DNA of 63,781 bases, counting the filler, from Klebsormidium nitens (taxonomy: Eukaryota > Plantae > Klebsormidiophyceae), in the NCBI GenBank assembly GCA_000708835.1. It is 6 parts of 6 records of this genome, joined end to end, with 100 filler letters (N's around TTAATTAATTAA, not from the genome) between each part and the next. Parts side by side here need not be neighbours in the genome. Positions count along the whole stretch, not along the records: positions 46,733 to 54,569 come from DF238285.1; 5 more parts are not named here. One strand, 5' to 3'. The notes below the pieces were generated by a model that ran no database searches, was not told the origin of the DNA, and saw nothing but the letters and a program-made list of their open reading frames with translations. A program made the position numbers and the translations under genes. Position 1 is the stretch's first letter. Each line of letters starts with the position of its first letter. This document shows, in pieces, positions 10,046 through 62,601 of the stretch.

Positions 10046-10065
10046 GTCATTAGTGTGTGGGGGAG

Positions 10066-37737: not shown

Positions 37738-37803
37738 GGGATTCTGCCAGAGGTCAATGTTTGGACTGCGACATGGGGCACAGTTCTCTACAGACTCTCG
37801 AAT

Positions 37804-41619: not shown

Positions 41620-41809
41620 TCCAGTCCCCCCTCCCGCTTATTTTCTCCAAGAAAATTAGCTGCAATCTGAGGGCTGCGACTCACCCGTGTTACGCGACCG
41701 TCCCTGACGGCTGTTGTCAGGTTCTCCCTACTCACACTAACACCTTTCGAGGAAAGGAAGCATCGCCCCCTAGTCGCGCCTGATCGCTACCAGACCGACC
41801 TCGAAATTG

Positions 41810-42800: not shown

Positions 42801-43140
42801 ACCAAACCAGACTCCGCAGACTCGGTAAAGACGCCCACAATGTCTTGGTTAAGCGGCCGAACGTTGGCGTACCCTGCAAGCATTATAGGAGGTGTGGGTG
42901 CCTCTTTTTGCCTCAGAGCCATCACGGACTCATCAAAGGACAGATCGAGTTCCTCCAGATGCCGCTTCCTGTACGTGTAGTACTGGAAGTTCGCATGCTG
43001 CATATCAGGCTTTGACACTGGAGTGGCCATTTGTGGCATGACGCTTGCCTCACCCGCATCCACCACCACGGCTTCCTTTGCGATCTTGAACGACAGGGGT
43101 GCGCCACGGTGAAGCACCTCAAGCACAACAGGTATCCGCA

Positions 43141-43560
43141 CAAAATTTGTTCCCCTTGTCTCCAGTCCTTGTAGTACTTCATCTTGCCTTTGTAGGCATT
43201 CGCAGTCAGTCCGACCTTTCCGATCACACTCATTCCGAGTAGAACAATATCATTGTCTCCTGGTGTGACAACCACATATGCACCAACAGTGGTTTCACCC
43301 GCCGTTCCTGGGTTAAGCACAATCGGAATTCGCTCTAAGGATCGGTCAAACGGTGCAGTGACCCGTTCATCTGCACACCGCAGCGCAACAGCGCCTTTCT
43401 GCATCATGCTGGGTTTGATTCCTGCTTGCCTGGCCGCTCCCCTGCCCATGACGATCATTTCGCACCCCGTATCAACCACCAGGTGCTGAAGCGCCTTGCC
43501 GTTTATCGTACAAGCAAGCCGGGGGGGGTTACTGTTGTCCAGCTTTGGGGCTTTGTGGAC
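43141..43560 (-). pseudogene. Retropepsin aspartic protease
   Basis: LVVDTGCEMIVM ... VLLGMSVIGKVG. Confidence 0.9.
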
Positions 43561-43735
43561 TTCCAAGTCCCTGTCCGCGGTAAAACTAGCTAGCAGGCAA
43601 CGATCCCAACAGCGCACTCAAACCAAGAGAGGATACGTCACAAAACTCCACCACAGTGGGCACTTCTGCAACTTGGAGCGCATTCTGCGGGGCTGGCGCC
43701 CGCCGCTCACTCTAAAAGGATTCTACCACGTTGTC

Positions 43736-45997
43736 CTAGAACAGGTCGAACTTGCTGTCCCCTTTGCAGTCAAACAACACGCCATCGTTCAACAACTCTT
43801 GGAGCAGCTCATCCTCTGACTGTCTCTGAGCACCGGCACATTCACGAGCCAACTGGCCCCGCAACGGGTGCACAAAGCGTTGGCTGGGGACGTTTTGACG
43901 CTCAAAAATACCCTTATGCTCTTCCATCAAATAGCCCAGCTCAAGCAAAGCTAACAGATGGGGTGGGTAGGTATACCTGGCGCGGGGCGCAAGGTTTAGG
44001 GCTGCCTGGTGACCATCTCGCCAAGAGCGACGAGTTTCATCTGACGGCATGTCTGCTGTAAGCGTTCGAGCTTCAGACACAGAGGCTCCCCCCCCCAGCA
44101 GAGATGCCGGCACAAGGTGAGCGAAGTAATACTTCCGATCCATCCACATGTTGGCACCGCCAGCAGGATCCCTACACGCAAACAACACGTCGAATTTTGC
44201 AAGGTGGCGCAAGACAGCAGTGGCAGACCCGTCTTCGTGCATCTGCCGGGCGATACGGCCCTTTCGTGCAGGGTCAATACGCAGCGTGCGTGACCTAGAC
44301 GCGGAAAAAAACAACCCTTTCTCAACCTCAGTCAAAACACCAAGTTCCAACAGTGCCTCAACGTCCATGTCATAGTGGTAATCAGCAGATGAGACCGGAA
44401 CACCCTGGCGGTGTCGCTCTTGAGCCTCCACGTATTCATCCCAGAACATGTTGCGAACATATTCTCTGGTGGGGTCACACTGCGACCAGTCAAGAGTGCA
44501 GTCAAACAACATCTCATTGTCCAACAGGAATTGGAGATAGTCCTCCTCGTGACAGTTGGCGTGACCCTTGACGGCCAGATAGAGCAAGACTTCAAACGGC
44601 ATACGGTGTTCCGGACGGTGCACCAGCTGAAAGACACCCGCGTTGACTTGAACCAACACTCCCAAATCCAACAGAGCCTCAAGATGCGGTGGGTTTTGAT
44701 ACCCTTCGTACCTTGACCCACGTGTCACTATGCCCCTGACATTCAGTGCATCGCGCCATGTGCCACTCGCTTGAGCTTGCCAGATCTCACTGGGCCAAGC
44801 ACACTTAGTAGACGCAACATGCGTGTCACCGAACTCGGAGTCAGTCGCCTCACTTACGACAGTCTCATAATTCTCCTCAGCCGGAACATCAGCTGGAACA
44901 ATTGATCACATCATTAGCCAAACCACCAGCTGCAACAATCGGAACAGACCCAGAAGTCCTCAACTCCGGCCATGCTGCATCACGTTCGAGGTCAGTATCA
45001 AGGCGCTCATGCACGACCGCGTCGTTGAACACCTCCTTTCCTTGAGCGAACAACTGCCGGTCTTGGACCAGGCGTCTGAAAATTGTGTTCTTTGTTCTGC
45101 GCTTGTATGCTTTAAGTGCCAGGTCGTTTAAGTCCGGGTGCAGAGTCCACGTGGTGCGGTCTGTGCGCCCCATGAAAACGCCCTGCTCGAGTTCCTCCAA
45201 GTATCCAAGTTGAAGGAGCACATCAAGCCAGACAGGATATTCGTAAAATGGGGCAGGCTTTTAAACCTCAGTGACCACGGCCCTACCTGCTAAGGTGAGG
45301 TCGACTGGCACAGAGTCGTTGCCCCCCAGTGTTGCTCCGGCGGCTAGTCCGACGGCTGCAGCCTGGGCCCCAACAGCTGTAGGCGCGTCTGTTGACTGCG
45401 CCAGGTACAGGGCCCCGAGGTCCGCTCCACCATCGCCTGCAATGTAAGCAGGACCGTGAGCATACACGATGCGCTCGAGTGTAGACCAGTTGAAGACACG
45501 TTGTACCCTCGATGAACTACCATCTCGAAAGTAGAATGCGCCTTCCACGAAGTTTCCTGACTCCGGTGTGTGTATGACGCGACGATACCAGTGAATTCCA
45601 GACGGCAATTTGCGCCAAGTAGTCGCGTTCGCAACAGCGCGACCTACCCTGTCCACAGTGTATGCGCCCCAAGCAGGTGTAGCCTGCCAGACCCGTGAGC
45701 TACAGAAGTACAGACCAGGAGTTTCCTTTTGTTCATCCCATTTGTCAGGGATGCCATTCAGCGCAACTTCCTGTCCGACCTGAATGCGTGGGTGTCTGGT
45801 GCCTTGCTACCCCGTAGCTCAGAAACCACTGCCTTCTGGACCACAACTGGACTCCCTCGTGCCTTAGCTCGTGCCTCGGCACGGTGCTTACGGTTCCTCA
45901 CACTTTTGGACTGACCTGGCGGTGTCTCAACGGCGTACTGGAACGCTAAAACGACCCGTGGTGGATTCTGGTGGAATTGGGTTCCGTAACGGGTCAA
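43736..45997 (-). pseudogene. Gypsy ORF1 region containing four copies of an unrecognised ~70-100-aa domain
   Basis: YPVWLDVLLQLGYLEELEQGVF / NPPHLEALLDLGVLVQVNAGVF / DMDVEALLELGVLTEVEKGLF / YPPHLLALLELGYLMEEHKGIF. Confidence 0.7.
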
Positions 45998-46079: not shown

Positions 46080-46424
46080 TTGGGGCCTTGAAACATGAGC
46101 AATTAGCTAACTCAAACTTCCAGCAACAACTTGTATGAAGGTCTTTGGGGCCCTCGAAATGCAAGCAATTGCGCTAATTCAAGCAATCCAAGCAACTACT
46201 ATGTGTGGGGCTTCATGGGTGCCTTGAAACATAAGCTATTGCGCTAATTCGAGCAATCTAAGCAACTGCTGTATGAATGGGTCATTAGAGCACTTGAAAA
46301 AATGAGCAATTTCGATAATTTGTGCAATTCAAGCAATTGTTATATGTAGGGCTCATTGAAATGCTTGAAAAGGTAAGCAATTACGCTAATCAAGCAATCG
46401 GAGCAAACGCACTGTGAAGGGGTT
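46080..46424 (+). repeat. Degenerate ~70-bp tandem array (5 units)
   Basis: Recurring cttgaaa..agcaatt.cgctaatt..agcaat..aagcaac in the leader upstream of Gypsy ORF1. Confidence 0.75.
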
Positions 46425-46632: not shown

Positions 46633-46740
46633 NNNNNNNNNNNNNNNNNNNNNNNNNNNNNNNNNNNNNNNNNNNNTTAATTAATTAANNNNNNNNNNNN
46701 NNNNNNNNNNNNNNNNNNNNNNNNNNNNNNNNAACGTGGA

Positions 46741-47031
46741 TTATGCGGCTAATCGTATAGCTCTCTCTTGTCCACTACCTTTGACAAGACCAGCCACGCA
46801 AGCTGTGCAGAACACAGATAAGCTTGGCTGCATCGAACGGCGAAGCCGAACACAACTTATCCTGAACGGTGACATCGGCTCACAGAAGCCGATCCATCCG
46901 GGATATTACGGCGTCTTGCAGACAGCCACGCAGTGCGTCGTTACGACGTAACCACCGCCGTTTCGCTAACCCGCAGGTCAACGAAATCCTGTCGAGAACG
47001 AGCTTAGGCTTAACCAGTCGTAATCGTTACA
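46741..47031 (-). repeat. 291-bp LTR-like segment; inverted copy at 62206-62496
   Basis: 5 mismatches in 291 bp by eye against 62206-62496. The inner terminus reads TGTAACGATT; the outer end abuts a gap. Confidence 0.9.
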
Positions 47032-47549
47032 GTTGCCATTCGTCTTTTCCTCCACATGTCACGAGCCATTCTGAAGCCTTGTGGCCCGTTCTTCTCATGC
47101 ACGGCCCTCAAAAGCACATCAGATTTACAATCATATCTTGTTCGGCATGATTGGCAAGGATGCGCAACCCATGGCAGTCTAGAAAGATCATTAATATGGT
47201 ACTTGCGTCGAGCGTCCTGGGTGGTCAAACTGTCCAAAAGAGCATATCTCGCGTCGATACAGTGAATGCAAACGATTGCTCCAAGATGAGGGGAAAGTGG
47301 CCATTGAAAGCAGTAATTGATCCGTTTGCAAATCGTGCACTCTTGATTTGGCCGTGCTTTACTGCACAGATGCGGCCCGAGCGACTCGGACAGGCTTTGA
47401 GATTGGAAGGGGTATTCGTCAACTGTGCATCCAAGGAAAGCATGGGCATCTCTGCACGTAGAGGCGGAAGCGGCCAGACCTTGGAGATCAAGCTTCCCGT
47501 TCCCCGCGATGATGCTCAGCACGGAAGCAAACTTTTCGTTGAGGTCCAT
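47010..47549 (-). CDS. Zinc-finger protein with an XPA-like DNA-binding region, 3' end cut by the LTR-like repeat
   Basis: CTIC..VCIHCIDARYALL..TTQDARRKYHINDLSRLP..AVHEKNG recalls the XPA Zn + C-terminal subdomain. The last codons come from the repeat. Confidence 0.5.
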   Translation of the reverse strand: MDLNEKFASVLSIIAGNGKLDLQGLAASASTCRDAHAFLGCTVDEYPFQSQSLSESLGPHLCSKARPNQECTICKRINYCFQWPLSPHLGAIVCIHCIDARYALLDSLTTQDARRKYHINDLSRLPWVAHPCQSCRTRYDCKSDVLLRAVHEKNGPQGFRMARDMWRKRRMATVTITTG

Positions 47550-47629
47550 GGCGTTGGTATGAGGCTTTGAAAGAAAACGACCGATTTGTACGCAGCAACC
47601 GACCGACTTTTTTGATTCCGTGTTTGCAG

Positions 47630-49678
47630 AAAGATGGGGTCTTCAACTTCTCCGGCACCAACCTTATCTCGCACGGCCTCCTTCTAAGAAAACACTTTGC
47701 CGCCGCCCTTGGAGCAGCACACAGCCTCAACTTTGAGGCCGGAGACATGGCCACGAGGTGCCTCGACGGGCCGAACGTCCCTCGACTGGACGATCGGGTA
47801 TTCGACTCGGCTATGCAAGCCTTCAACGACCTGGCCGCCCGACCTCGGATCCAGCACGTCTGCTCGCGCGTCGACTGCGCGCACCTCTACACGTGTGAGG
47901 TGGAGATGGCGGAGGCGGAGGCTCGGATGGCTGGCACCCCCCTGAGGCCGGAGCGAACGGAGAGGCCGAGCTCCGAGCTGTCGACCTACGCTTTTGGGCG
48001 GGACAAGGTCGTCACCTTCGACGGCACCTTCTTCGCCAACTCAAGCGCGATGCGAGACTCTGAGACGGAGGCATCTCTGCACAGCATCTGCGAGCCGGAT
48101 CCAGGAGCACCGAGGGTTGCTGGGGGCTTCACTCCTCTTAGCGTTGGCGGGGTGCGGCCATCTGACGTGCCGTTGGAGGGGATCGACTGCCCTTGGAAGT
48201 ACCGGAACGGCCTCTCAAAGCTACGGCCGGCAATACGGGCGCTGGCGCTTCGTTGGTGCAACTTTCGCAAGGCCCCGGCCCAAGGGAGCAACGCGCCTTT
48301 GATGACGGAGGAGTTCGTCGCCATGCGGGAGAGGCTTCCGGCCAACGTTGCCGCTCTGGTCGACCTCGTGACCGAGTCGAGGGCTTGTGCGGACCCCGCC
48401 ACGTGTGCCGTCTGCCAGGGGGTCCCGAGGCGGCCCTGGATGCAGGGGTTTTTTAAGGATGGGCCGGTGGGGCCGACCGGTTGGTGCCCCACGCACTTCC
48501 AGCCGTATGGAGCCCTTCTCCACGCGCTGCTCATCCTTCGCTACTCGTGGGTGTTTGGGCGCATTGTCACCCTGAAGTTGTTGAGACACGTGTTGCTGGA
48601 GGGGCCTCTCGATGCGCGAGGGATGGCATTTCTCTCCAACGACGGCCCCATGTTGGCGGCCGTCCTGCGCCTCTATCCAATCGCCGGCGGACAGTACGCC
48701 TTTCCGGCGGCGCTCCGCCCACTTGTGCGCGACATCTATGCCACGAACCTCCTCTGCTTTGAGCCGAGTGCAAACCGACCGGGTCCGGCCTTGCGATCGC
48801 CACTGGCCGCCCTCCATGATGCGACCGAGCACCTCTGGGCAACTGAAGGCGAGAAGCTGAGGCTTGCGGGTCAGCTAGAGGGGGCGGCCATGGAGTATGC
48901 CGAGCAGCGTGGGGCGGCATTGAAGGGGGCGGCCAACTCGCTCCTGTTCGAGCTCGAAGTTCGAGAGCCCCAGTGCTACGAAGAGGGCGGCTTCCTTCGA
49001 GCGCCGTCGGCGACTTACACGGAGCGGGTCGCCGCTGTCTCGACCTACTCCTTCCACCCCCTGCTTTACGGCCGGCCTCGATTCGTCGATTGGGAGGATG
49101 AGGAGGGCCGCGGAAAGAAGTCGACGGAGGAGCGGCTCGCCCAACACTGCAGCACGCCCAATCCGCGATCGTCCAAGGGCCGTGCCGGGACATTTATTGC
49201 GTGCTGCCAAGACCGGGCGCCCCTTGACTTCCACTGGCTCAAGGGCGGCGAGTCGGTGTCGGACCTTGGTACGGTGCTCCTGACGCGGTTTCCATTCAAG
49301 ACGCTGCGGGGCATGACCGTCGTGGAGGACGCTTCGTGCAACGCGCAAGAGTGGTTGCTGAACCGGGTGCCCCAGATGGCCAAGTATGTCTGTTTTGTTG
49401 TAGATAGATTCCATAGTGGGCCCGTGAGCTGCGCTCCATCCGGGGCGAAGCGCTATGCGACGCACACATGCGCGCCGACGCTCTTCATCGACTCTTTTTT
49501 GCAACACTGCCACACGATCACGACGGCCTCGGAGGGCATCAACTCTGGGCTGAAGAGGTGCACGGCGAGCCTTCAGCAGATCACGAGCATCAAGCGGCTG
49601 TTGAGCAGAGTCACCACAATCCTCGACACGTTGTTTTCAAGAGCGATCAAAGTACGCAGTGTACTTGAGCAATACTAG
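47630..49678 (+). CDS. KDZ (Kyakuja-Dileera-Zisupton)-type transposase with a Cys cluster; open for 680+ codons
   Basis: GTFIACC, GGESVSD..LLTRFP, VVEDASC...WLLNRVP, VVDRFH, HTC, SEGINSGL match the KDZ core pattern. It starts at a TTTGCAG acceptor, so the 5' exon is missing. Confidence 0.78.
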   Translation, partial: KDGVFNFSGTNLISHGLLLRKHFAAALGAAHSLNFEAGDMATRCLDGPNVPRLDDRVFDSAMQAFNDLAARPRIQHVCSRVDCAHLYTCEVEMAEAEARMAGTPLRPERTERPSSELSTYAFGRDKVVTFDGTFFANSSAMRDSETEASLHSICEPDPGAPRVAGGFTPLSVGGVRPSDVPLEGIDCPWKYRNGLSKLRPAIRALALRWCNFRKAPAQGSNAPLMTEEFVAMRERLPANVAALVDLVTESRACADPATCAVCQGVPRRPWMQGFFKDGPVGPTGWCPTHFQPYGALLHALLILRYSWVFGRIVTLKLLRHVLLEGPLDARGMAFLSNDGPMLAAVLRLYPIAGGQYAFPAALRPLVRDIYATNLLCFEPSANRPGPALRSPLAALHDATEHLWATEGEKLRLAGQLEGAAMEYAEQRGAALKGAANSLLFELEVREPQCYEEGGFLRAPSATYTERVAAVSTYSFHPLLYGRPRFVDWEDEEGRGKKSTEERLAQHCSTPNPRSSKGRAGTFIACCQDRAPLDFHWLKGGESVSDLGTVLLTRFPFKTLRGMTVVEDASCNAQEWLLNRVPQMAKYVCFVVDRFHSGPVSCAPSGAKRYATHTCAPTLFIDSFLQHCHTITTASEGINSGLKRCTASLQQITSIKRLLSRVTTILDTLFSRAIKVRSVLEQY

Positions 49679-49834
49679 CAATCCTTTGAAAGACTCGATC
49701 AAGAGGGGGCGCTGTTGAGGTTGTTCTGTATTACTCTATTACTCATTACCCACCGCCTCAAGTTCCTTTTGAGTTTTAACATCTGTCATGTGGTGAGGAG
49801 TGCACAGTTAGTATTTCATATTTGTAAAAACAAC

Positions 49835-49868
49835 GGGTAATAGGGTAATAGGGTAATAGGGTAATAGG
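49835..49868 (+). repeat. (GGGTAATA)4 microsatellite
   Basis: Read directly between the converging KDZ and helicase 3' ends. Confidence 0.9.
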
Positions 49869-49959
49869 ATGTATGGTTTAAGGGTTCATTCATGGGTACT
49901 GTCATGTGTGTGTGTGTGTTGTAAGAAGGGTAATCAGAGGGTAATAAGCTATTTGGTAC

Positions 49960-52900
49960 TCAAGCTCTTTGAGAAGAATCATCTTCTGGTCTATCCTGTG
50001 TTAATACTTCTCCGTCCTCACCTCGCCTCACCGCCCACACATGACGGTTCGAGCAGAACGAGCACTTCTGATCTGCAACGGATTGTCGCGACCCTTTTGA
50101 GGCATCGACCAGCTCTTGAAGAGCTGTTGGCTCTGTCATCCATGGCCCTTCCTTATCTTCAACGTAGTCGACTCGTTGCCACGTGTCCACCCACTCCACG
50201 GTGGAGCTCAGAAGCTTGCCTTTATGGAGAGCCTCGCAGATTGCGCCCTGTGGGGCAAACCACCATCCCTTGTGGGTTCGAACCCCCTGAACGGAGCGTG
50301 CCTGCGGTCGCATCTTGAAAACGGCATTCAGAGAGCGCATCAAGAGGTTGACGTCGGAATGGCGGTCTTCTTTGATATCCATCTGATACAGGAACGTGTC
50401 ATAAGTCCGCTTGATGTCTGTCGATGCTACCCATGTCTCCAAAGAAGGGTGAAAGCACCCGTTCTCGAGCAGAGCTTGCATCATATTCACATGTGGTGGA
50501 ATCGAATGTTCCTTCAATGTAACGGTACGGAGGTCCGAGTGCTCTACCGTCGAGCTACGACCCAAAAAGGTGATTCACTTTTNNNNNNNNNNNNNNNNNN
50601 NNNNNNNNNNNNNNNNNNNNNNNNNNNNNNNNNNNNNNNNNNNNNNNNNNNNNNNNNNNNNNNNNNNNNNNNNNNNNNNNNNNNNNNNNNNNNNNNNNNN
50701 NNNNNNNNNNNNNNNNNNNNNNNNNNNNNNNNNNNNNNNNNNNNNNNNNNNNNNNNNNNNNNNNNNNNNNNNNNNNNNNNNNNNNNNNNNNNNNNNNACT
50801 TCGCCCAGCCTGGGGTATAGTACCGCATGTAACGCTTGAGCTAGGCCCCAGAGTCCACTGAGTACTTCGCCTAGGCCCAATCGTTACATTCAAGCCTTCC
50901 CCCCAGGTTGTGATTGGCATCTTTTGAGGATTCCAGTTAGAAATATCAGTGGATGACAGGTATTGAAAGAGGTGATATGCAGTTTCGGGTTTCTCCATCT
51001 CTTCCACGAGTGGATCAAAGTACTCTTTGTCACCCATTTTGGCATCTGATACTTGCTGACAAGCATATCGGCGATCGTCGGCCTCTCGTTTTACTGGCCA
51101 AAAGTTGTTTGTGGTGAAAACGATATTGCTCGTGTCCTGGACGGTGATTGGATTACGGCCTTTGTGCTCTAAACACGTCTCGTCCTCAGTGATGAGCGAT
51201 TTCATCCGATTGTTCATTCGAAACGCTCCGCCCCAATTGCCCGCCTCATCAAAGACAATAAGAAGCTTGTTGGCACCTAGTGAATTGAATTTGCCAATCA
51301 CCGTTTCAATCTGATTGCAATAAAGATAGTACTTGGCACCGAGGATCTTGCGTCCAAAGAATTTCCACAACGAAGACTTTCCACTCGCTTGCCCACCTCG
51401 AAACACTAGGGCGACGCCAATCTTCTTCCAGGGTTTTTGAACGGCATGTGCCATCCAACGGATAGTATAGTCAAAGCGCTCCTTTGACCCATCGCACAAG
51501 ATGTAGCGAAGGTGCCACATGAGCTTTGGCATCTGTTCCTCGCACTCCACGAGCTCAGGCTCCGTCAATTTGTGGTCGAGCGGTTTGAGTCTCAGCCCGG
51601 AGAAAAGATTGAAGTGTCGTGAGGACCCCTTTGATGGGTCTGGTTCGAACACAATCTGATCGTATTCACGGCGTTTAGAACTGCTCTCCCAAAACCTGGC
51701 AACCTCCTTGCTCTTCCCAGGTAGGCTCTGAAGTTGGAAGTTTCTGCAGATTTCCAGAAAGTCGCGACCCGACCGAGCGAGGGTCTCCTTGGGCTCAAGC
51801 TGCCCGTTGTCGTCTCTCGAGTAGATTGTTTCCAGATAAACAGCCTTTGTCGAGCGGACAACGGCAAAGTAATGGTTCATTATACGCAGAACGAGATCGT
51901 GCATGTCCGTTTTTGCTCTCTTTGTTCGTTCGTCGTCCTCCTCCTTCTTCCTTTTCTCCTCCGAGTCGCTTCCATCTGCGGGCGGCTTAAAGGGGAAAAC
52001 GTAGCTTTCGCAAGTTTTGAAAAGTTCCCGTTCCACTCTCAAAGGCAAACACTCAGGCCAGAAGTAGATGCCTAGCAGAGGCTTTGGTCGATCGATGCAA
52101 TCCGGGGACAGACAACGGTACACAAGCACGCACCCGTTGCTCTGGATGCTGAATTGATTCAAATCGTGCTGGTGGCCATTCAAGCACGTTCGCATGCCGT
52201 TCGTTTTGAACTTGAGGATCTACCACCCGTTCGTGGTCCTTTTCCCAACGCCGTTAAAGATGCTAGAGTCGCCTGGCACTCTAGCACGCAGCAGCTTCTT
52301 GATCTCTTCAAGCGCTTGTTCCAGCCCGGCCAATCGATTGGCTTCCGTATCATGATGTGCGGTGCTACATGGTGCCACATCTTTTGCTCTTGGTATTGAC
52401 ATCGGAGCATGTTGCTTCGCAATTCGTGATTCCTCATTGAACGCGGCGTCGTTCAAAAAGTGGACCAACCATTCTGGCATCCCATTGCGAGGTGCCGATT
52501 CGTCGGATCCACTCCAATAATAGCCATACTCTCTCCCAGCTTCGTCAAAGTACTTTGAGGGAGACACGAATACTATCCCGTCTTTTCCTCTTCCATCAAT
52601 GGCCCATGTGGACCCCTCGTATGCGACCCTTGCAAAATTTGTATCTTTGAGGAGGCCGGAGGTCTTGCTTCGGCTAAAATATAGGTGCAACCCCAATCTT
52701 GATCCGGTGGCTGCCTTTAGTGTCTCAACGGCTCCGTGTTGCTCCACCAATTGCTTCCAGAGCCTTGTGCTTGCCTCTTTGCGCGGGTCCTCGTCCTTTG
52801 AAGATCTTTCCGTGGCATCGCAATCGACGACATAGAGATCGGATATGCCACAAAGCACCGCGAGAGCATTAACATCCATGGCGGCCTTGTCAATATAGGA

Positions 52901-53215
52901 ATTAATCCCTTCCTTCCAACCAGCTAACGACTTCGTCAACGGGGTATAACTGCCACCGCTGAAGGTCGCTTTCTTCTTTCCCTCAACCATTTCAAGCCGG
53001 AGCGGAATGGTGTACATGCCCTGTTTGTAAAGAGATCGCATACCTTTGACGATACGATACTTTTGCTGGAAACGTGATTTTAGTGGAGCATCATTGCTGG
53101 GCTCATGAAGCCCGCCGTCCTGGGTGATGAGCACGAGCCTCTCATCCACAGGGGCGTGGACGTATTGCTGCTTCTCCGTTGCGGCTTCTTGCGCGCCTTC
53201 CATTTCTTTGTACAT
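49960..53215 (-). pseudogene. Bifunctional primase-polymerase (Prim-Pol) fused to a Zn domain and D5-like SF3 helicase, ~960 aa when reconstructed
   Basis: Prim-Pol NALAVLCG..VVDCD, TGSRLGLHLYF, IDGRGKDGIVFVSPS. TAG at 52220-52222 is followed by 8 in-frame codons into MRTC..H..C..C. Walker A GGQASGKS, Walker B IVFDEA, sensor VFTTN. The C-terminus resumes in frame after the 50518-50888 insert. Confidence 0.9.
50518..50888. mobile_element. LTR-type insertion in the helicase gene (contains a gap)
   Basis: TGTAAC..GTTACA termini and 5-bp TSD TTCAA (50513-17, 50889-93). Removal restores WGEGL-KEHSIPP. Confidence 0.9.
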
Positions 53216-53304
53216 TATGAGAAGGTTTTAAATAAGGCGTTTCAAACGCGCGTGCGTTCAATCTTTGATCGTTCAAATTTTCTCACCATGATGTTAATAC
53301 TGAC

Positions 53305-53658
53305 ATGAAGTCGCACAGTGAAACTGCCTCAAACGACAACTGCATTTGCAAAACCTGTGCTTCAATCAAACGATTTCATGAGAGGCATCCTGATGCTCGT
53401 AAGACGTACACAAAACGATATTATTATAAGCACAAGAACACAATTTTGTCGACTCAAGCTTTTCAACGCTACAAAAACGGACATGCATCTCAACAAAAGA
53501 CTCTAAAGCGCCTCTTTGATGCAGGCTTTCCAGTAAATAACGGTCCACATCGTGCATGGCAGCATGGTGACCATCAAATGGCGTCTTCAGACACGTCAGA
53601 TGAGACCGAAGTGCCCTCGCTCCATTTGGGTGCGTTCACAAGCATTCAAGTGTCCTGA
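53305..53658 (+). CDS. Small basic protein, possibly DNA-binding (virus-like)
   Basis: CKTC..RKTYTKRYYYKHKNTIL..QRYKNG..TLKRLFDAG; K/R/Y-rich, in the spacer between recombinase and primase. Confidence 0.4.
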   Translation: MKSHSETASNDNCICKTCASIKRFHERHPDARKTYTKRYYYKHKNTILSTQAFQRYKNGHASQQKTLKRLFDAGFPVNNGPHRAWQHGDHQMASSDTSDETEVPSLHLGAFTSIQVS

Positions 53659-53694
53659 AAGAATTTGCCACGTAGCGGGCACATTGTGAATCGT

Positions 53695-54569
53695 TCAAAA
53701 CCGGATCGGAGAGCCGTGTTGGTCGAATTTCTTCTCGTAGGTTCGCTGTGCCATAGCGGCCGTGTGCAACATGCTCCGCGCAAGGTCGTCGCGCTCGGCT
53801 ATGCTTGGAGCATCTTTGAAGAGATTGCTCACACAAATCTTGCGAAGAAGACACGAACCCACGCTTGCGTCTTTAAAAAGACATGTGCTGCAGAATTTTG
53901 AGAGATAATTTCGGCTCATTGGCTTGTCGGGCGACCTGATTCGAGATAATAGGTACCTCCTCGGAAAGACTTCCAGCGATTCCGAGATGACGTTGTTGCA
54001 TCGGGTCGACATGTCTACGGAAGTCGGTCCATGGTGACGGACGGTCTTAAAATCGTTCAATACCAGACGAAATTCGTCTTTTTCGAAATCCAACAGGTAA
54101 TTTCCGGATCCAGACATGATCTTGCGAGTCTCAGTTGTTTTAATGTCTTTTAAGCGCACGATGGGGCAATCGCTGTAGTCATTGCGAAGTGCCCGTTGAT
54201 AGCTATACAAACAGAGTATCAAGTGGCGAAAAAGCACAATTTTGTCCTCATCGGACAAATCTTCGGGCTTCTTGTGTAGAATTTTGCGATTGACGTGCCT
54301 CAGCAACTCCACACGACGCTCGTTAATTTGATCCAAAGTTTTCCAATTTGCTGCTTCGCGCTCTGTTAGTTGCTGGAGAGGCGGCTTGCTTTGATCCATG
54401 AGCTTTCGAACCTCTGTGTACCGCTTATAGTAAGCATCATAGAGCTGTTTGTCATCGGAAAATGCTTTGCGCGCTATCACAAGAAGCGGGTTAATCCCAG
54501 TCGCCTGCATCGACAGCTTTGAGGGGTAGGCTTCTTGAAAGTACTTGATGATTCCGTCAGCGTCCTTAA
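53695..54569 (-). CDS. Tyrosine recombinase of the Polinton-like virus/virophage (OLV11-like) type; 5' end in gap
   Basis: LYSYQRALRNDY (Arg), LNDFKTVRHHG (Lys), LLRKICVS (Arg), LARSMLH (His), QRTYEK (Tyr). The frame is open up to the gap. Confidence 0.85.
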
Positions 54570-55451
54570 NNNNNNNNNNNNNNNNNNNNNNNNNNNNNNN
54601 NNNNNNNNNNNNNTTAATTAATTAANNNNNNNNNNNNNNNNNNNNNNNNNNNNNNNNNNNNNNNNNNNNAAACAAGCATTTGACCCTTACGAACGGCCTT
54701 AAGCGGAGTCGTGTTACCCAGGTCAAAAAGTATACTGACAAAAAACAACTTTCGCACCTCCAGCTCGACCTAATGTAGGCACCCGGGACCATCTTACAAT
54801 GGCCCAAAACAGAGAGAATCAGTGAGAGCTCGTCGTCTAACAGACCATATACGACTCAATAAAGTTGTCTGACAACAGTCGCAAAGTAAAACAGAGGCGC
54901 GTCATCAAAAGTGCTAAAAGAAACAACCTTCTAGTGCAAGTCTTTGCGCCAGTGAGATCGATGTTGCCTTGAACAAAGGAGTTCGAGGGGTCCAACTTGA
55001 AAACAAACTGCAATTCGGAGCGAAGATATCCCCTAGCTCTAAGCTGCGGCCTCCACATACACAAACGCAGTGTCAAAGAACAAGACCCGACACACGGCGT
55101 GAGCAGCCAATCTCCTGAAACGGATCCAAACAGCCATATAGGCTTTTTCAAGTGTTTTGCAGCTTGGAAGAGAACGAACGAAAACCGTTGTGGTGCCGGA
55201 AAGATTCATGTTTCCACTAGGATGAGTGCCCCGGCCCGTCAACCTGGAGAGAAAGAACCTGTCCAACTGGGAAGAGTCTCGATTAGCGCTCAATTTGGCT
55301 GCCACACACTATCGCCCTCCCTGCCCCGGCTTGATCAAAATAACCACACTGGCACCGATATATCCGGCATGAGTTGAACCCAAGAGTCCTGAACTCTAGC
55401 CGAAAACAGACTAGTTTCCGGCCGCCCAAACGAATCAAATCATGTTCCGTG

Positions 55452-58400
55452 CTAGATGATCCCGGACAGGACTTGTATGACCATAAACAGAGGCAGCAAG
55501 AACAGAGGCAGCAAGAAAAAAAGCCAACATAGCAACCTTCCGGAATTGTAATGGATTGGTGGGATAGTCCCAATCAAAACAGACAGCGGTTTGGAGTCAC
55601 AGATCAACCACTTTCGAAAAACAACCTTCCTATCGTAAGAAGCGGACAGAAGAACGAACTCGTGCTCACCACTCTCATCGTCCGACTTCAAATTTACCAG
55701 CTCTGGGACCCCCGCAGATTGCTCTCTTGTGACTTCCGCACTCCGAAGCTCCTCTTCTGCGTCCGACCCTACGTCGTCCTCTAGGGCCCCGTCCATCTCG
55801 TGCCGCAAAATGTCCCTCCATTCCTCGTTCATGCCCGTTGACCGTCCTTCCTCGGCTTCCTCTCCGAGCTTCAACCTGCACTCCTGAAGGAGATGCCCCT
55901 CCGACTCTAGCCAGCCTCGCTCTTCGCATTCTTCGTAAGCCTCCAAGGCCTCCTTCCACTGTGCCAGGTCAAAGTAGGCTTTGGCTAGGGTGCGGTGTAA
56001 CCTGGGCTCTAGCCTTGCCTCCACCCCCAGCACCCACGCCGTTTGGGCCGCCATCAACGCGTGCGTAAACTGATTGTTGTGCTGGTACGCAAGAGTGCGG
56101 ATGTACTCCGCATGACCAAAAAGGGGCCAAACCTTTAGAGCCCGCTTGCACAGATCGACCACGTGCGAAAATGGCCTCTCCGCGCGCCAAGGGATTCCAG
56201 GAGCCCAACCCTCCCACATTTCTTTAGCGTCTTGGTGCTTTCCCTCGACAAGTTGCTTCAGAATGAACGTCGCCAAGTCGTCCAACTCGGTGAGTTCGAT
56301 CTGGGCTCGCCGAATCACCACGTGCTCACGCTTGGGCACGTATGCGTTGTAGTGGGAGACGCCATTGTACCGGAGGTACAGTGGGTGGTCAAAGCCATCG
56401 GTGATTTTCCCTTGCTCCGGCTCAAACCGGAGAGGCTGGTCGACTGGCAAGGAGGGGTGGTAGATAACGATCTCAACACCTAGCAGGTCCGCCATCACTT
56501 GCAATAGAAAAAAAAGCCATTGTGAATTCCAACAAGGAGCGTCGCGGTCCAATCTGTGAAAAATTCGTAACTTGTAACGCTCAGTCGCTAGATGATTCTC
56601 GATGCCGGTTCTCCGGACCAAGGTTGAACCTTTTGATAATGTTCGACAAAGTTTCAGGGTGTGACTGGTGGGAATGGCTCCTTTGCCCTTACGTTCCTGC
56701 AATAAACAAAGAGAGTCAAGTTGCTTCAAGACTGAGAAATTAGTAAAACTTCTCGTTTATTTCAATGATGTCCTTTAGGGGACAAAAACAAAGGGTCAAA
56801 AATCTTCAAAGTCCTTTGTTACCTCCACTCATGTATTGAATCGGGGTGTATATAGAGGGATATGGAATCGGTCAAAATAAGTCCTGAGAGATTTTTCCCC
56901 CGAAATTTTGCTTCCAACTCGTTCCAGGAGTGCGTGTTGCGCTTTTCCTCGAGGATTAAAATCACATGCCTTCTGACATCCAAAACAGAGGCGGGATGGC
57001 AAAGATCGATCAATTAACTCCGCAATCGTCCATTATCTTTGCTGTTGGTGTTCGTTTTGTCCCGAATAAAGGAACGAAAGAACAAAGTTCAATGCACCTC
57101 AAGCTCTATAGGCGGCCACAAGCCCTTTACCGTCACACCAACGATATAAACATAAAGAGTGCGACTCGCTCCGAGGAGAATAGTGGTTTTTACTCCAAGT
57201 GTTTCTGCAACATGTGCCGTCAAAGCTACAAACAGAGGGTAAAACATGCAGGATATGTCTAAAAGTTTCTTGATGTCGCTTTAACGAAGCTGTTCCACTT
57301 GTTTTCGGTCGAAACAAAGAACCAAGGAGACGAATTGGATACTGAGGCCTTTGGGTGTTGGCGCGATTGAACTTTTGAATCTGGTAAAAGAACAAAGAGA
57401 ATCCAACCCGCTTGAAAGACAACGGATTGGCGCTACTCGATCTCGAGTCTTTCACAGAGCCAAGGCAGCCACAGAGCCAAAGTACAGAGGGTAAAGAAGA
57501 GGGATTCACTCGAATAAACATCGGGTTTTGTTGTCCTCCCCTTTCAATGTTGTCTAGGGTGTGAACAAAGGAACATGGAGCTGAAACAAAACGAATTCCT
57601 CATGAGCCGAAGCAAAATTCTCACCTTCGCTATGGCGTCCCCCAGAGGGTGATTCCATTGCCTCCTCTTATACTGAGCAATCATTGACTCCAGCTCCTCG
57701 GCGAACGTTAGACTCCCTTGGTCGTACCAATCAGGGTGCTCCCTCGCTTGCTTCCAGGCCGCCTCCATGAGACCGGGTACGCCCCCTTCGAAGGGCTTCC
57801 CTTGAGCAGCCAACCCGGTTGCCACCGCTAGAAACGCGCACAGCCCGTTTGGGCTTACCTCGAGTCGCACAAGATGAGGATGTCTGGCCGCGAATTCCTC
57901 GTCCATGAAGCGGAGGGCCTCCGTCTGATCGCTGGCGGGATCCCGCTTGCTAAACTCCTCGGCGCAAGAGGCAATAGCGTCCTCTAAAGCTTTCACCGCT
58001 TCTTCCAACTCAAGGCTTGAGGTTGAAAGAGCTGCAAGCTCCTCGATGCTTGAGATGACTAAGGGGAGTGCCGTCATCAGGATACGGTGTAGTGCGATGC
58101 TCTTTCCGAATCCCACAAAGGAAGTTGCAAGCTCATCCGCCATCGACGCGAGCCGTTCCTTGGGGAGTGCTTCTTTTCCGGGTTGATCGCCGAGGGTCTT
58201 CACCTTTCGAAAAGTCTCAAGGGCTCCCTCAAGAAGGCCCTCGATAGTTACCGCAAACCCCTCCTTCTCCCCCTCCGCGACCGTTTCAAACACCTCCAAA
58301 AGATGCACCGCCTGCTTCCGACAAGCCCTTAGAGCACTTGAGGCGAAATATCCATCTAGCTTCGAGGCTTCGATCAGCAACGACACCCCGGAGCCCTCCT

Positions 58401-58764
58401 CTCCCCGCTGTCCAATCTTCTCCAAACCCCGTTTCATCAACGCCTCTGCCCTCGCAGCTGAAGGATCTGAGTCGGAACTGGCTTGCGGTGCGGGATGGGG
58501 AGCACACTTCTCGTTCGGGCGGTTAGGCTGGAAGGCGTGCTTAGGTGCGCGCTCCGGCGGCTCCTCGGTGGTTGGTCGGAACGCCCCTCCTGGCTGCCCG
58601 GGCTTGGTGTTTGCGCACGCTGGAGTCGATCTGGGTGCGCGCTCAGGCATGCGCTTGGGCATGGTTTGGGTTGTGGGCTCGGGCTCGGGAGTCTTTGGCT
58701 CGTTACCATCTGCATAAGCGGAAAAGTACGATGCATCACATCCAGAAGAAATTCTGCTCTTCAA
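55452..58764 (-). pseudogene. Spliced OTU-like cysteine protease + TPR protein
   Basis: The upstream exon has VSPNGLCAFLAVA (Cys box) and QWNHPLGDAIAK before a GTGAG donor at 57624. The downstream exon has MADLLGVEIVIY..LYLRYNGVSHYNAY (His box), then TPR-like helices. The expected acceptor reads CAA, not CAG. Confidence 0.65.
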
Positions 58765-59636
58765 GATTAATGAACGGTGACTCTTTCAAGCGCGGCCACA
58801 ACTACAGTGCCAAGACAAAACTCAAGCCTGGAACCACTTTAACAAGCCGGTACACTCAGCAGTACGACTTGTTTGAAGGAAACGGTATGCATTTCAGTTT
58901 CTGAAGAAGCAAAGAACCAGAACGGAACATGGTGATTCCTGTTGCCCGATCAGTATTCGATATTCGAAAACGTCTTCCCAAGTATGACGATCAAAAAGAC
59001 TTTTTTGTCTTAGACTCAGTCATCTAGAAAAGGGAACATCAGAGCAGAATACATATATTCAAACATCTATCCGACCATTTAGTATGATCAAAGGAAGACC
59101 ACGCGTACCCAAGTCCATAGGGTCAGCATTCCTTGTATCGAAGCCCTGCTCCTCCGTTGGAAGCAGAAAAATCTCTGCCGTTTTCAGAGCAGGACGCCAT
59201 TTGGGCATCCCAAAGCGCCCCATCGGGATCCCCGTATCTCGATTGGACATCTGCCATGTGAGGAGGGTCAAAGAAGTGAAAACTTTCCAAAAGGCTCGGC
59301 TCGATGCAGATGTGATTCAAACCGCTCTTTGCCCTTTTCTTTCTCACGACAGGGCAAAGATTAGATCCCGAATTTCCATGATTCTCTCCATGCTGTCACT
59401 GCAGGACTTCCCTGGCGACAACCATCAAAACGACTTGTCCCTAGACTGAGAGGTAGCTAGCCAAGCTGATGTAAGCTTTTTTTCCAACTTTGAAAGTAAG
59501 ATGGTGAATTAAAACTATACCAAGGCGCCGCTTCGTGTTCGTCATTCTTGACTTTAACCAGAATTTCCGTGTCGACTTCTGTACATAACATCAATCATGA
59601 GTTATTCTTGACTCCAGATTGCTTTACCGTCTAATC

Positions 59637-60167
59637 TTATCCAAGGCAACCCCTTGTCCAGCAATTAGTGCATCTCATTCGAGACATTTGTGTTCTAGAG
59701 CTGTGATTGAAACGAATCCTCACCTCCATATTGCGACACTCATAGCACACGCTGTTGGTCCATAACACCGGCGTGCTTCCAGCCGGTTGACTGTCCGCGC
59801 ACTTGCGGCATGCGCAAAGGCTTTCATTGATGCTGTCGCTTTGACCCGGGCAGAAAGGAACCTCCGGCAATCCTCTGACTTCCACAGCTCTGTACGCGAA
59901 TTGAGCGTCCGAGACGGTCATGGGATGACCAGCCGCACACCAGCCAATGATGGTGTCGCCTCCCGGGTTGTTGGTAGAGTTGACAAGGCCAGCCAAGTCT
60001 TGGTGGTCGGCCTCGAAGAGCGGGCTGTCGCAGCAAGCACACGAGTAGAGGTCGAACTGGTACCATTGCTTCGCAACCTCCAAAGTTTGGCAAGCTGCAG
60101 CACGATTCCGTCGAAGTTCATTCAAAAAAGGGCTAGAATGAAAGTCACATGCATACAGGAGCTTCAC
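59637..60167 (-). CDS. Cys-rich (probably zinc-binding) ORF/exon, unknown family
   Basis: CACCDSP, WCAAGH, CACRKC, CYEC, CTNC spacing. Confidence 0.4.
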   Translation of the reverse strand: MKLLYACDFHSSPFLNELRRNRAAACQTLEVAKQWYQFDLYSCACCDSPLFEADHQDLAGLVNSTNNPGGDTIIGWCAAGHPMTVSDAQFAYRAVEVRGLPEVPFCPGQSDSINESLCACRKCADSQPAGSTPVLWTNSVCYECRNMEVRIRFNHSSRTQMSRMRCTNCWTRGCLG

Positions 60168-60612
60168 AACTTTAACGAAGATGTGAAGAGATCACACTTT
60201 TAGGAACCAACACGCCCACCGAATTGAAAGTGCCTCGATCGACGTCAAGATAGCATGTCATGCCAAAGGGACTTCAGAAATGTCTCACTGGCAGCTGATG
60301 CAGGTGGTGAACTTGTCGAGAACACAAAAAACGCCTCTTAAAAGATAGAGAAACCGCATTAGCGTGGTCCGAAAATCGATAACGGCAAACTCGAGTCCAC
60401 TGATCTAGCAAAAGAACCGCAGATTGCTGCCTCACAAGTTGCCTCAAGCAGTTATAGAGGAATGTTTGAATCAATTTGAGCTGGATTAGAAGCAAAGAAC
60501 CACATAGGGAGGAATGAAAGAAGAACGGTCCGTCTTGACTTCCTAAATGTAATTATTTCGCAAGAACTAGTTGATCAATTCACCGATTTATGCAGAACCA
60601 AACTGAGCTTGA

Positions 60613-60861
60613 TTAGCAAAAGAACCACAGCAGGGAGGAATGTAAAGAGGCCGGAAGTCGTCCAATCTCACCGTCATTGATGCTCTGAACGGCGTCCGCC
60701 TTGACTGGAAGCTTTTGACCGGATTGTTGCACCTTGTCAGGGTGAAAGCGAAGCAACCGTTCTCCCCTTGCCTTGCGGATATCGCCGCGGGAGTCTGTTC
60801 TTGAAGCTCCTAGCACGTTGTAGAATCGTAGAGAAGCGACAGCTAAGACTGCACTTGCCAT
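60613..60861 (-). CDS. J-domain (DnaJ-like) first exon
   Basis: FYNVLGAS..DIRKA..LRFHPDK, followed by a GTGAG donor-like site. Confidence 0.7.
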   Translation of the reverse strand: MASAVLAVASLRFYNVLGASRTDSRGDIRKARGERLLRFHPDKVQQSGQKLPVKADAVQSINDGEIGRLPASLHSSLLWFFC

Positions 60862-62205
60862 GCTGTCCTGAACACTGCAATATAATGGTTAACAACTTTA
60901 GATACTTCGAGGGCTCACCTTTTAAATCAACATCCTTTGACCGTAGCTCTAGCTGGTCGCTAAATAATAGAGACGAACCTTTTTGGATCAGATTTCAATG
61001 AACCGTCAAAAGTGATGCTATGATCGTTTGTTGAGCGACAACGCATTTATCCACAATGATAGAAGTGGTAGGTTTATGTCTATTGTTCACACCTTCAAGA
61101 ATCTGATCAATAACCCCGTCCACAGTGGGTGGCAGGGTAAATCACTTCGGCCCATTCATTGATGTTGGTTCAAGCCAGAGTGTTATCCATGACCCCTCCA
61201 CCTGAGGGAGTACTATTTGCTATCTAAACCCTTCCATTAGCCCCTAAACCACCTATGAATTTCGAATCCTTATCTGCTAATGGATGCTTAATTGTATAAA
61301 AGGTGTCGATCACGTTGGGAGACACACTGGCGTGCCGGCTGCTGCAAATCTGATTTGGCTCTTAATTAGGCAATGAAAAATGGGCTGAATAGAAGATTCC
61401 AGAGCTAGAGCAACCTGATTTTCAAGTGAATCGAGAGAAGAATGCACGCACCTTTGCAACCAACGACAAAGCCAAAACCACGCAAGACGTCTTGAGGCGG
61501 ATCCTATTCCAACCACTACAATTCTATAGTCTGTTCTAGTTCAAAACACAAGGGCACAAAGGATTTCTAAGCCTCCATACGAATCACATGCACTCTTCTC
61601 CGGCTGCACCATATATAAGCACTCAAACCTGCTCCTTACAATCACGATAACTTCTCTGGAAGGCTGAATGCTGAATGCAATTTCCACTACGATTGAAGAG
61701 CGCCTTCTCCATTCCTTGGCTCTACAGATGCAAGTTGTTTTTGTTAGCTAAGAAAGGCTCGTAGCTCGTACTGGTTTGTAGAAGGTAGACTCGTGCTAGA
61801 GCGGAAAACAACTTCTTCTTCAGCAGGCCATGTGTGTTTCATTGAGTCCTATCCGAGAAAATATCCCATGTCTCGAGGCTACGATCAATGATGGAGTTTG
61901 TTTAACCCTGGCCGAGTCATACTGCGTTCTTTGTCTTTTTCTTTATCTGTGTTCCACGTGGTTGGTGAACATGGGAACATGTTACCGTTCATTAATGCAT
62001 AGCCGAATCTCAATCATTAGATTCGATTCGGTGAATTACAAGGTGTACGGATCAAAAACGTACCCTAAAGAAAACCCTAACTCCGCAAATTCCTGTATGC
62101 TGACCATGGATGCGGTTTTGCCTCTAACTTGGGTTGCCGGTTGCTTCATGCTCGTCACACAGGATCTTGGGTCTAGCGTGAAGGGACGAGGCATAAGAAC
62201 CTATC

Positions 62206-62496
62206 TGTAACGATTACGACTGGTTAAGCCTAACCTCGTTCTCGACAGGATTTCGTTGACCTGCGGGTTAGCGAAACGGCGGTGGTTACGTCTTAACGAC
62301 GCACTGCGTGGCTGTCTGCAAGACGCCGTAATATCCCGAATGGATCGGCTTCTGTGAGCCGATGTCACCGTTCAGGATAAGTTGTGTTCGGCTTCGCCGT
62401 TCGATGCAGCCAAGCTTATCTGTGCTCTGCACAGCTTGCGTGGCTGGTCTTGTCAAAGGTAGTGGACAAGAGAGAGCTATACGAATAGCCGCATAA
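62206..62496 (+). repeat. 291-bp LTR-like segment; inverted copy of 46741-47031
   Basis: Starts TGTAACGATTACG and runs into a gap. Confidence 0.9.
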
Positions 62497-62601
62497 NNNN
62501 NNNNNNNNNNNNNNNNNNNNNNNNNNNNNNNNNNNNNNNNTTAATTAATTAANNNNNNNNNNNNNNNNNNNNNNNNNNNNNNNNNNNNNNNNNNNNAACG
62601 A

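Follow-up and report, generated by a model that had tools for sequence, protein, structure and literature searches.

The window analysed here comprises 63,781 nt of Klebsormidium nitens DNA (GCA_000708835.1), and the locus lies on a 7837-nt contig at positions 46733-54569 (DF238285.1). On the plus strand, the last exon of a KDZ (Zisupton-type) transposase gene (47630-49678) runs tail-to-tail with a minus-strand gene at 49960-53215, which combines a Prim-Pol domain, a zinc motif, an SF3 helicase and a C-terminal domain in about 960 codons when its LTR insertion is left out. It is followed by a minus-strand gene for a tyrosine recombinase (YR) of the virophage/Polinton-like virus (PLV) type at 53695-54569. 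The spacer between the converging transposase and helicase genes (49679-49959) contains (GGGTAATA)4 at 49835-49868; it is common to the copies of the locus and rich in indels, and paralog contigs bridge it (49563-50148). Between helicase and YR, a possible small plus-strand gene (53305-53658) would encode 117 aa with CxCxxC and a basic YYxHK stretch; this region is repeated (summed depth 81-121) and gave no matches in domain and sequence searches. A Cys-rich minus-strand ORF (47010-47549, about 172 codons before the LTR that cuts its 3' end) lies on the opposite strand from the KDZ exon and upstream of it. It had no match in Pfam, PDB or viral contigs, and one paralog contig aligns to the window at 47200-47230, then again from 47744.

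On the left, the contig breaks within a minus-strand LTR end (TGTAACGATT..., 46733-47031), whose summed depth exceeds 1e5. A 292-nt inverted repeat (46741-47032 and 62205-62496) was considered as the TIRs of a 15.7-kb element and rejected, since both arms, each at a depth above 1e5, end at an LTR terminus and their flanks differ; the LTRs at 46733-47031 and 62206-62496 belong to one family and are not a TIR pair. On the right, a linker (44N-TTAATTAATTAA-44N, 54570-54669) marks the contig end, and adjacency beyond it is unproven. The pieces between such linkers decrease in size (11252, 10180, 7837 and 7827 nt). The piece at 54670-62205 was likewise rejected as a continuation past YR, being a single 7597-nt contig of single-copy depth (18.2); it bears TPR-like ORFs and others that look OTU-like on visual inspection only. 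No TIR or TSD of the element was seen in the window, in which both contig ends are broken.

The visible 290 codons of YR are colinear with full-length paralogs in a single HSP, and the first ~61 codons, past the contig end, are found nowhere in the window. The catalytic residues R128, K174, R242, H268 and Y277 are all present (conserved in 117/118, 118/118, 118/118, 113/118 and 85/118 alignment rows), and the predicted structure of a paralog (pLDDT 96) matches Cre/Xer. The gene at 53695-54569 is a Cre-fold tyrosine recombinase, with R-K-R-H-Y intact as the earlier note had judged its catalytic residues to be. Relatives were found in virophage contigs L001 and L082, which match PF21915/PF22031, in the algal giant viruses AaV and TetV-1 and in Qinghai Lake virophage; by these relatives, with OLV11 itself outside the comparison, the sequence is assigned to the OLV11-like type. 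In scans for the DNA context of paralogs, YR was found in 0/119 pattern matches from metagenome contigs, and viral contigs gave 1/43 (L001), 0/49, 2/5, 0/5, 0/17 and 0/14. The YR tree contained no Crypton sequence, and the linked KDZ and primase-helicase genes argue against a Crypton, in which YR is the sole transposition enzyme.

The fusion of Prim-Pol (PF09250, E 1.7e-9) and DUF5906 SF3 helicase (E 3.8e-18) was confirmed with Pfam, and its motifs were located at 52831 (DxD), 51397 (Walker A), 51262 (Walker B), 51121 (motif C) and 51079 (Arg finger). As for the zinc part of the fusion, the motif C341-H-H..C365xxxxC370 is kept in paralogs and matches no Pfam family. The damage reported for this gene was also found: a single in-frame TAG at 52220-52222, where paralogs have a sense codon, and an LTR-type insertion at 50518-50888 (TGTAAC...GTTACA, with TG..CA ends) flanked by a 5-bp TSD, TTCAA, at 50513-50517 and 50889-50893. 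Paralog proteins and contigs read through the helicase without this LTR. The insertion, which includes a 215-N gap, is likely a solo LTR, and less probably a collapsed full element. The helicase clusters with sequences of Marseillevirus/NCLDV-like and Polinton-like type and separately from those of phages, which together with the YR relatives bears out the view of both genes as eukaryotic-virus-like. A metagenome scan with the helicase returned distant relatives only (at most 39% identity; 79 loci kept of 450), none carrying the YR or KDZ of the locus. The proposed link to transpovirons was given up: these are linear plasmids of mimiviruses with a superfamily 1 helicase, according to the available text of PMC3671162, whereas the helicase here is of SF3/DUF5906 type and chromosomal.

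The left neighbour changes the picture of a two-gene virus-like module: both genes are virus-like as claimed, but the repeating unit is larger and includes a DDE-type transposase. The ORF at 47630-49678 is identified as a KDZ (Zisupton-type) DDE transposase exon, with D48020, D49328 (EDxxC), DRFH at 49403 and E49532 intact, so that both the D-D-E and the DxFH/HxC motifs of the domain are present. The full-length KDZ paralogs have 1254-1331 aa, and 8/9 long ones carry a CxxC..CxH motif. Their Pfam matches are weak, all under the curated cut-offs (CxC4, E 0.0008-0.011; KDZ, E 0.017-0.038). For residues 640-884 of paralog P0229, 22/30 Atlas feature hits fell in PF18758 clusters at 0.96, with TM 0.63-0.68 to KDZ clusters (Atlas). 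The structure predicted for KDZ was of low quality (pLDDT 38.5). Zisupton proteins are laid out as SWIM+CxC4+KDZ (available text of PMC11343200); the 5' exons (SWIM-like, CxC4) are absent from the window, and a frameshift near 49640 costs about 24 C-terminal residues.

We weighed whether the locus could stem from viral or bacterial contamination assembled together with the alga's DNA, given an assembly that is fragmented and contains linkers, and Prim-Pol/DUF5906 domains that are common in phages. This reading is extremely improbable and is refuted by the host-type lesions and the depth: the locus bears two LTR insertions, a stop and a frameshift, and exact contigs occur at depth 12-20, like single-copy nuclear DNA at 18. 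Moreover, the top matches are K. nitens models, and no YR relative was found among 40 pattern matches in GTDB genomes, or in phages. The locus is endogenous, as first stated. Its lower GC held in comparison with the KDZ exon (62.5%) and with the region of host genes at 19-25 kb (66%), but not against the other pieces, whose 49-52% equals that of helicase (50.4%) and YR (47.9%).

Many paralogous loci were found, as the earlier note had hoped. Among the matches listed, 6/9 K. nitens helicase gene models adjoin a KDZ model; consecutive locus tags occur on five scaffolds (00274, 00324, 00892, 01136 and 01383), and a single model, KFL_014570010, runs through YR and helicase and reads KDZ in antisense. 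Across several assemblies, with contigs matched by their length, 25 listed helicase contigs carried KDZ in 15 cases, YR in 12 and all three genes in 10, so that 17/25 had a partner, with 0.016 matches expected by chance; wherever orientation was known, the contigs with KDZ had the same arrangement. Contigs of about 10-30 related copies cover 47.5-54.6 kb, and summed depth is 158-676 between 47519 and 52234 and 81-326 between 53021 and 54569, whereas unique contigs have 12-20. The KDZ family is dispersed and multi-copy.

Counting against a three-gene unit, 24/40 KDZ contigs (12 of them at least 20 kb) and 38/51 YR contigs (10 of at least 20 kb) among the matches listed, from searches limited in length, had no partner, and in one 2969-nt contig the KDZ 3' end is followed by 2.4 kb without a helicase match at 80%. 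Gene distances across loci were not significantly correlated (Mantel rho 0.14, 0.05 and 0.26; p 0.24, 0.38 and 0.11), and the Mantel test fails even for the certainly linked YR-helicase pair. Such partnerless contigs and incongruent distances would fit a capsid-less, satellite-like element of YR and primase-helicase that forms a unit of its own and hitch-hikes by site-specific integration just behind KDZ genes. So would YR motifs that stay intact across copies 46-86% identical, an intronless cassette with lower GC3 (57%, vs 77% in KDZ), and a spacer (49679-49960) with a depth peak, many indels and loose ends. We regard this sharpened form of the earlier note's proposal as possible at most: partners are frequent on the helicase contigs and KDZ has the same arrangement where orientation is known, YR and helicase are just as incongruent with each other, and no att-like repeat was found in the window.

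We then considered constraint and decay. In 14 linked YR copies, minor letters had a frequency of 0.095 in outgroup-conserved columns and 0.209 in variable ones (Fisher p 0.0016), a sequence pattern showing YR to be under constraint among linked copies. The same column test was flat for the helicase (0.090 vs 0.094, p 1.0). Among the covering linked copies, the Walker A K of the helicase is kept in 15/15 and Walker B in 14/14, and the KDZ D/D/E is kept in 25/27, 22/22 and 18/18 covering copies. A dead viral fragment that came by chance to lie next to a KDZ copy and then multiplied, either carried along passively or through segmental duplication, would account for the flat helicase test, for the fragmented gene models of many copies and for the 20 non-synonymous changes (15 synonymous) in a selected subset of 35 listed variants; giant algal KDZ elements do fix nested insertions, as described in the available part of PMC12477816. 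This origin is nevertheless improbable, in view of the YR constraint and of YR and helicase catalytic residues that are invariant among linked copies differing by 18-26%. The present copy itself is predicted to be non-autonomous because its helicase has a stop and an LTR and its transposase is truncated and frameshifted. The earlier description of the locus as recent is weak for this copy: there are three more lesions (the KDZ frameshift, the missing 5' exons and the second LTR at 47031), and the nearest paralogs among the matches listed are only 81-92% identical.

The absence of capsid genes needs a narrower statement than the one first made. MCP, mCP and packaging ATPase are universal in PLVs (PMC4642659), whose units measure 15-30 kb, often with TIRs (available portion of PMC10120064). 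In the ORFs scanned in the contig (46733-54569), no Pfam match to Sputnik-type MCP, penton, ATPase or protease was found, and neither pPolB nor the rve integrase of Polintons/Mavericks is in the contig. "No capsid on either side" is untenable, because YR runs off the contig end, the single-copy DNA that follows does not continue the gene, and K. nitens has 7 PLV capsid hits (PMC10120064, in part); the claim holds for 7.8 kb on one side. Depth of 326 up to the contig end indicates that the repeat continues. A whole PLV fused with a KDZ transposon in the manner of Teratorn, with genes for capsid and ATPase in DNA upstream of YR that the assembly does not include, would agree with this. The 7 MCP hits (contigs BANV01000556, 572, 1558, 1713, 2520, 2626 and 2767) form one cluster, which counting the columns of Table S4 (PMC10120064, in part) assigns to the PgVV block. 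In PgVV-type PLVs, YR is the most frequent of the information genes, by the text available from 10.1101/2022.07.28.501842, and virus-transposon fusion has a precedent (PMC10175614, in part). We hold such a fusion, too, to be possible at most, as 7 MCPs face about 10-30 copies and the 25 helicase contigs over several assemblies, and by locus-tag order the YR-helicase model on scaffold 00892 (25 kb) has a single gene model ahead of it. In addition, no MCP contig equals a helicase, YR or KDZ contig in length, although comparing contigs with scaffolds is a weak comparison, and no close relative was found in IMG/VR.

Three genes with their catalytic motifs are repeatedly linked in a multi-copy state. 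YR and primase-helicase beside the same KDZ gene at many sites make a giant transposon with a viral copying and integration kit likelier than an isolated viral remnant. We therefore favour, at a probability of roughly one half, a damaged copy of a giant KDZ transposon whose YR/primase-helicase cassette is of viral origin and maintained by selection. The cassette, from a PLV or virophage, would have entered once, probably through the action of the YR that it encodes, at a site directly 3' of the transposase gene. The spliced ~1300-aa DDE transposase would excise the whole unit at its ends and reinsert it elsewhere, leaving 8-bp TSDs; KDZ/Zisupton elements are bounded by TIRs and 8-bp TSDs (PMC12730594 and PMC11343200, in part). 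The cassette may be retained because the Prim-Pol/SF3 protein could prime and unwind excised DNA for copying off the chromosome and YR could circularise or resolve these copies, so that copy number would rise beyond plain cut-and-paste. That this amounts to a self-synthesising class of DDE transposons is less probable: KDZ excision would be combined with priming and copying by its own Prim-Pol/SF3 protein without a protein-primed polymerase, with YR circularising or resolving, and the capsid-less element might be packaged by PLVs or giant viruses of the alga as a eukaryotic satellite. To our knowledge, all known self-synthesising eukaryotic transposons use a protein-primed polymerase. Phage satellites (PICIs/P4-like) have a similar kit of tyrosine integrase and primase-helicase without their own capsid, whereas the present genes lie in a eukaryotic nucleus with a DDE transposase attached.

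Among known elements, Zisupton/KDZ transposons, including giant algal ones (Zisupton-3_cRei, 31.7 kb; Ectocarpus KDZ, up to 30.3 kb), share the ~1300-aa SWIM-like/CxC4/KDZ transposase and are likewise multi-copy, with accessory genes and broken copies. Algal KDZ elements reach 30 kb, with nested insertions and accessory genes fixed (PMC12477816 and PMC9977147, in part), but the cargo here is a virus-type YR and a Prim-Pol/SF3 helicase with conserved catalytic residues, and no KDZ element with such cargo was found in the literature. PLVs and Organic Lake-type virophages (PMC4642659) have an OLV11-like YR alike in family and fold, a primase-SF3 helicase fusion and integration into algal genomes; the 7.8-kb contig differs in lacking MCP, mCP and ATPase, in its fixed link to a KDZ-type DDE transposase and in a helicase joined to Prim-Pol, not TVpol or pPolB. 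The Plavaka giant repeats of Amoebidium are also intron-poor clusters with tyrosine recombinases and a flanking transposase (PMC11244446, in part), but they are CMCT-related, not KDZ (PMC12730594), and tandem, to 50 kb, with primase-helicase unmentioned in the available text of PMC11244446. Teratorn, a piggyBac-herpesvirus fusion, likewise joins a DDE transposase to viral replication genes, with another transposase and virus, and retains a whole viral genome, while this locus is known from three genes (PMC10175614, in part).

A cargo-bearing KDZ, a KDZ-PLV fusion and a KDZ-targeting satellite are each undescribed in the literature searched. If the favoured reading is true, selection maintains a primase-helicase and a second recombinase, of the tyrosine type, within one KDZ family at dozens of loci. 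Such a family would be a new hybrid of virus and transposon, from algal lineages that are sister to land plants, and the locus would offer a testable case of viral replication modules turning into capsid-less genomic parasites.

The locus is a real multi-copy hybrid of virus and transposon, and it is larger than the two-gene module drawn in the earlier note, as the repeated unit includes a Zisupton-type (KDZ) transposase besides the tyrosine recombinase (YR) and the Prim-Pol/SF3 helicase gene. The helicase gene, read on the minus strand from 53215 to 49960, matched Prim-Pol (PF09250, E 1.7e-9) and the DUF5906 SF3 helicase (E 3.8e-18), which bears out that assignment, and its closest solved relative was primase 6K9C/6K9E (E 1.8e-9). 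The single stop and single LTR insertion claimed for it were both found, as an in-frame TAG at 52220-52222 and an insertion at 50518-50888 with ends TGTAAC/GTTACA and a duplicated TTCAA; both sites were uninterrupted in paralog proteins and contigs.

A quick tree built from 95 helicase domains, after the script had dropped 7 short paralogs, placed the 13 Klebsormidium-type rows in one clade (99) nested in a 38-row set (98) that also held a Marseillevirus D5 protein, a Diversispora protein, NCLDV-like contigs and a Polinton-like contig, L053 (rve, A32 ATPase). This set was separate from most phage-like rows, and no single donor was resolved. The metagenomic L053 (349-11026) carries an rve-chromo integrase, the A32 ATPase and a Prim-Pol-like/DUF5906 helicase in place of pPolB, together with a 511-aa ORF, possibly a recombinase.

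The YR (53695-54569, minus strand) had no Pfam match and was characterized by a paralog profile, an alignment and a paralog model. The profile retrieved 2396 proteins at E<=0.001 and matched integrase 3NKH at 7e-6. As the earlier note had held, the catalytic residues are intact, with R128, K174, R242, H268 and Y277 at positions conserved in a 118-row alignment. Structure comparison showed that the paralog model (pLDDT 96) resembles Cre and Xer recombinases, with closer matches among proteins of Tetraselmis virus 1, Aureococcus virus, Pyramimonas virus and Qinghai Lake virophage, and two retrieved viral contigs with YR (L001 and L082) were virophages with Sputnik-type capsids. An OLV11-like identity is thus supported indirectly, through virophage and algal-virus relatives. 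In the YR tree the 13 YR rows formed one clade (99), and their neighbours were metagenomic. A divergent 15-member subfamily represented by P0074 (KFL_010320020; 46% to the window) was partnerless for helicase and KDZ in the retrieved sets and may mark another element type. One ENA contig size, 38474 nt, was common to a helicase, a KDZ and a YR of much greater divergence (proteins P0082, P0035, P0038, P0241); this YR was 26% identical to P0002 and was the nearest outgroup in the tree.

The KDZ ORF (47543-49678, plus strand) had 23 homologs at 50-94%. In the window copy the 5' exons are missing and the reading frame shifts near 49640; D, D, DRFH and E are retained. Full-length paralogs (1254-1331 aa) gave weak Pfam CxC4 and KDZ matches under cut-off, and the C-terminal 245 residues of one were placed with KDZ clusters (Atlas, 22/30 hits, 0.96; TM 0.63-0.68). 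The Zisupton layout is SWIM, CxC4 and KDZ (PMC11343200). A GC-rich ORF at 62597-63756 (plus strand) has a cysteine cluster that, judged by eye, resembles the CxC region of a different KDZ family; neither Pfam nor the linked KDZ proteins gave a match.

A KDZ model lay at the next locus tag or within the same model for 6 of 9 retrieved K. nitens helicase models (scaffolds 00274, 00324, 00892, 01136, 01383, 01457), and these six splice YR to helicase, which establishes the gene order. Among 25 helicase contigs, 15 shared a contig with KDZ, 12 with YR and 10 with both (chance matches 0.016), as judged by equal size of the longest contig, which shows a common contig and not adjacency. Within the linked subfamily, JGI proteins were 77-98% identical to the best K. 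nitens model and therefore come from another assembly. Paralog contigs, ~88% identical, cross from the end of KDZ over the spacer into the end of the helicase gene. In run X1, summed contig depth was 15.8 at 47257-47518 and 158-676 at 47519-52234; it was 39-59 in the Prim-Pol part, which diverges more, and 81-326 at 53021-54569. Summed depth is not itself a copy number; read roughly, it points to 10-30 related copies, and some helicase contigs at depth 160-173 hint at a subfamily that is younger and collapsed. Several results speak against a strict unit: a partner on the same contig was missing for 24/40 KDZ and 38/51 YR contigs in retrieved sets from length-limited searches, one contig ran from KDZ into other DNA, and gene distances did not correlate across loci. 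A capsid-less YR element that targets KDZ copies is an unlikely alternative here, with the recurrent linkage against it and these partnerless contigs in its favour.

The window contains five 100-nt linkers (44N-TTAATTAATTAA-44N), and the pieces that they separate decrease in size, as we would expect of unordered contigs joined by length. All three genes lie in piece 46733-54569, which stops inside YR; the first ~61 codons of YR are nowhere in the window, and the following piece is one unique 7597-nt contig (depth 18.2). The claimed absence of capsid genes on either side can therefore be upheld for one side, as the sequence upstream of YR lies beyond this piece. A KDZ-PLV fusion with capsid genes in that sequence is unlikely, with seven MCP hits in K. 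nitens (PMC10120064, Tables S4-S5) in its favour.

The locus is nuclear DNA and not contamination, because LTRs have inserted into it twice, its genes bear a stop and a frameshift, and its depth is like that of single-copy DNA (exact contigs, 11.8 and 20.2). Klebsormidium nitens gene models were the best named homologs of helicase and KDZ, none identical to the window (about 81-91% at best), and one YR cluster included one such model, so a contaminant origin is extremely improbable. NCLDV inserts occur in Klebsormidium (PMC5294986). Run X6 showed clustered C>T and G>A differences on 46733-54569 and 54670-62496, which suggests a bisulfite library, and was excluded from evidence.

A long inverted repeat around two pieces, considered as one element's ends, was actually two insertions of one LTR family; the family at 46733-47031 and 62206-62496 (summed depth 1e5-6e5) was by far the commonest repeat seen. 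A single-copy, apparently spliced gene at 55452-58785 (minus strand), with weak TPR matches and split OTU-like motifs (by eye only), is unrelated to the three-gene repeat. Gypsy-type remains (37800-43600, minus strand; RT, RNase H, rve) contain a C5 DNA methyltransferase fragment (42251-42790, PF00145 E 4.6e-4), consistent with the charophyte DNMT-retrotransposons that the PMC5890265 abstract mentions. A 71-nt tandem repeat (3.5 copies, 46146-46406) lies upstream of the Gypsy-type remains. A 389-aa ORF (43736-44905, minus strand) has internal repeats, in the form of three HLEALLDLG-like motifs, and no Pfam match. Two Copia-like elements lie in opposite orientation at 4795-10422, with LTR-like direct repeats 5270 nt apart, and 14200-17100.

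Among linked YR copies (n = 14), columns conserved in outside homologs showed half the variation of the other columns (0.095 against 0.209; p 0.0016). None of K, R, H and Y varied, and R128 was changed in 1 of 11. Helicase Walker A, Walker B and arginine finger were invariant among the 15, 14 and 13 copies covering them. The column comparison for the helicase came out flat, and of the 35 variants listed, 20 were non-synonymous. The data thus show constraint on YR and suggest it for the helicase. That the viral genes are passive cargo is quite improbable beside this constraint on YR.

We favour, at a probability of about 0.5, a KDZ transposase that would move the entire three-gene unit by cut-and-paste, with a YR/primase-helicase cassette acquired from a PLV or virophage. 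Judging by domain functions, the cassette may have been retained since excised DNA could then be primed, unwound and copied, and YR might resolve or circularise the products. The full-text literature searched (Repbase and subscription papers outside its scope) contained no description of a KDZ-YR-primase unit and no paper joining 'Zisupton' with 'primase', and the papers drawn on included PMC11244446, PMC4642659, 10.1101/2022.07.28.501842, PMC12730594, PMC3671162, PMC12344493 and PMC10175614. PMC12477816 and PMC9977147 describe giant KDZ elements in algae that reach 30 kb, contain nested insertions that have become fixed and carry accessory genes. On present evidence, the hybrid locus looks like a further variant of these giant KDZ elements.
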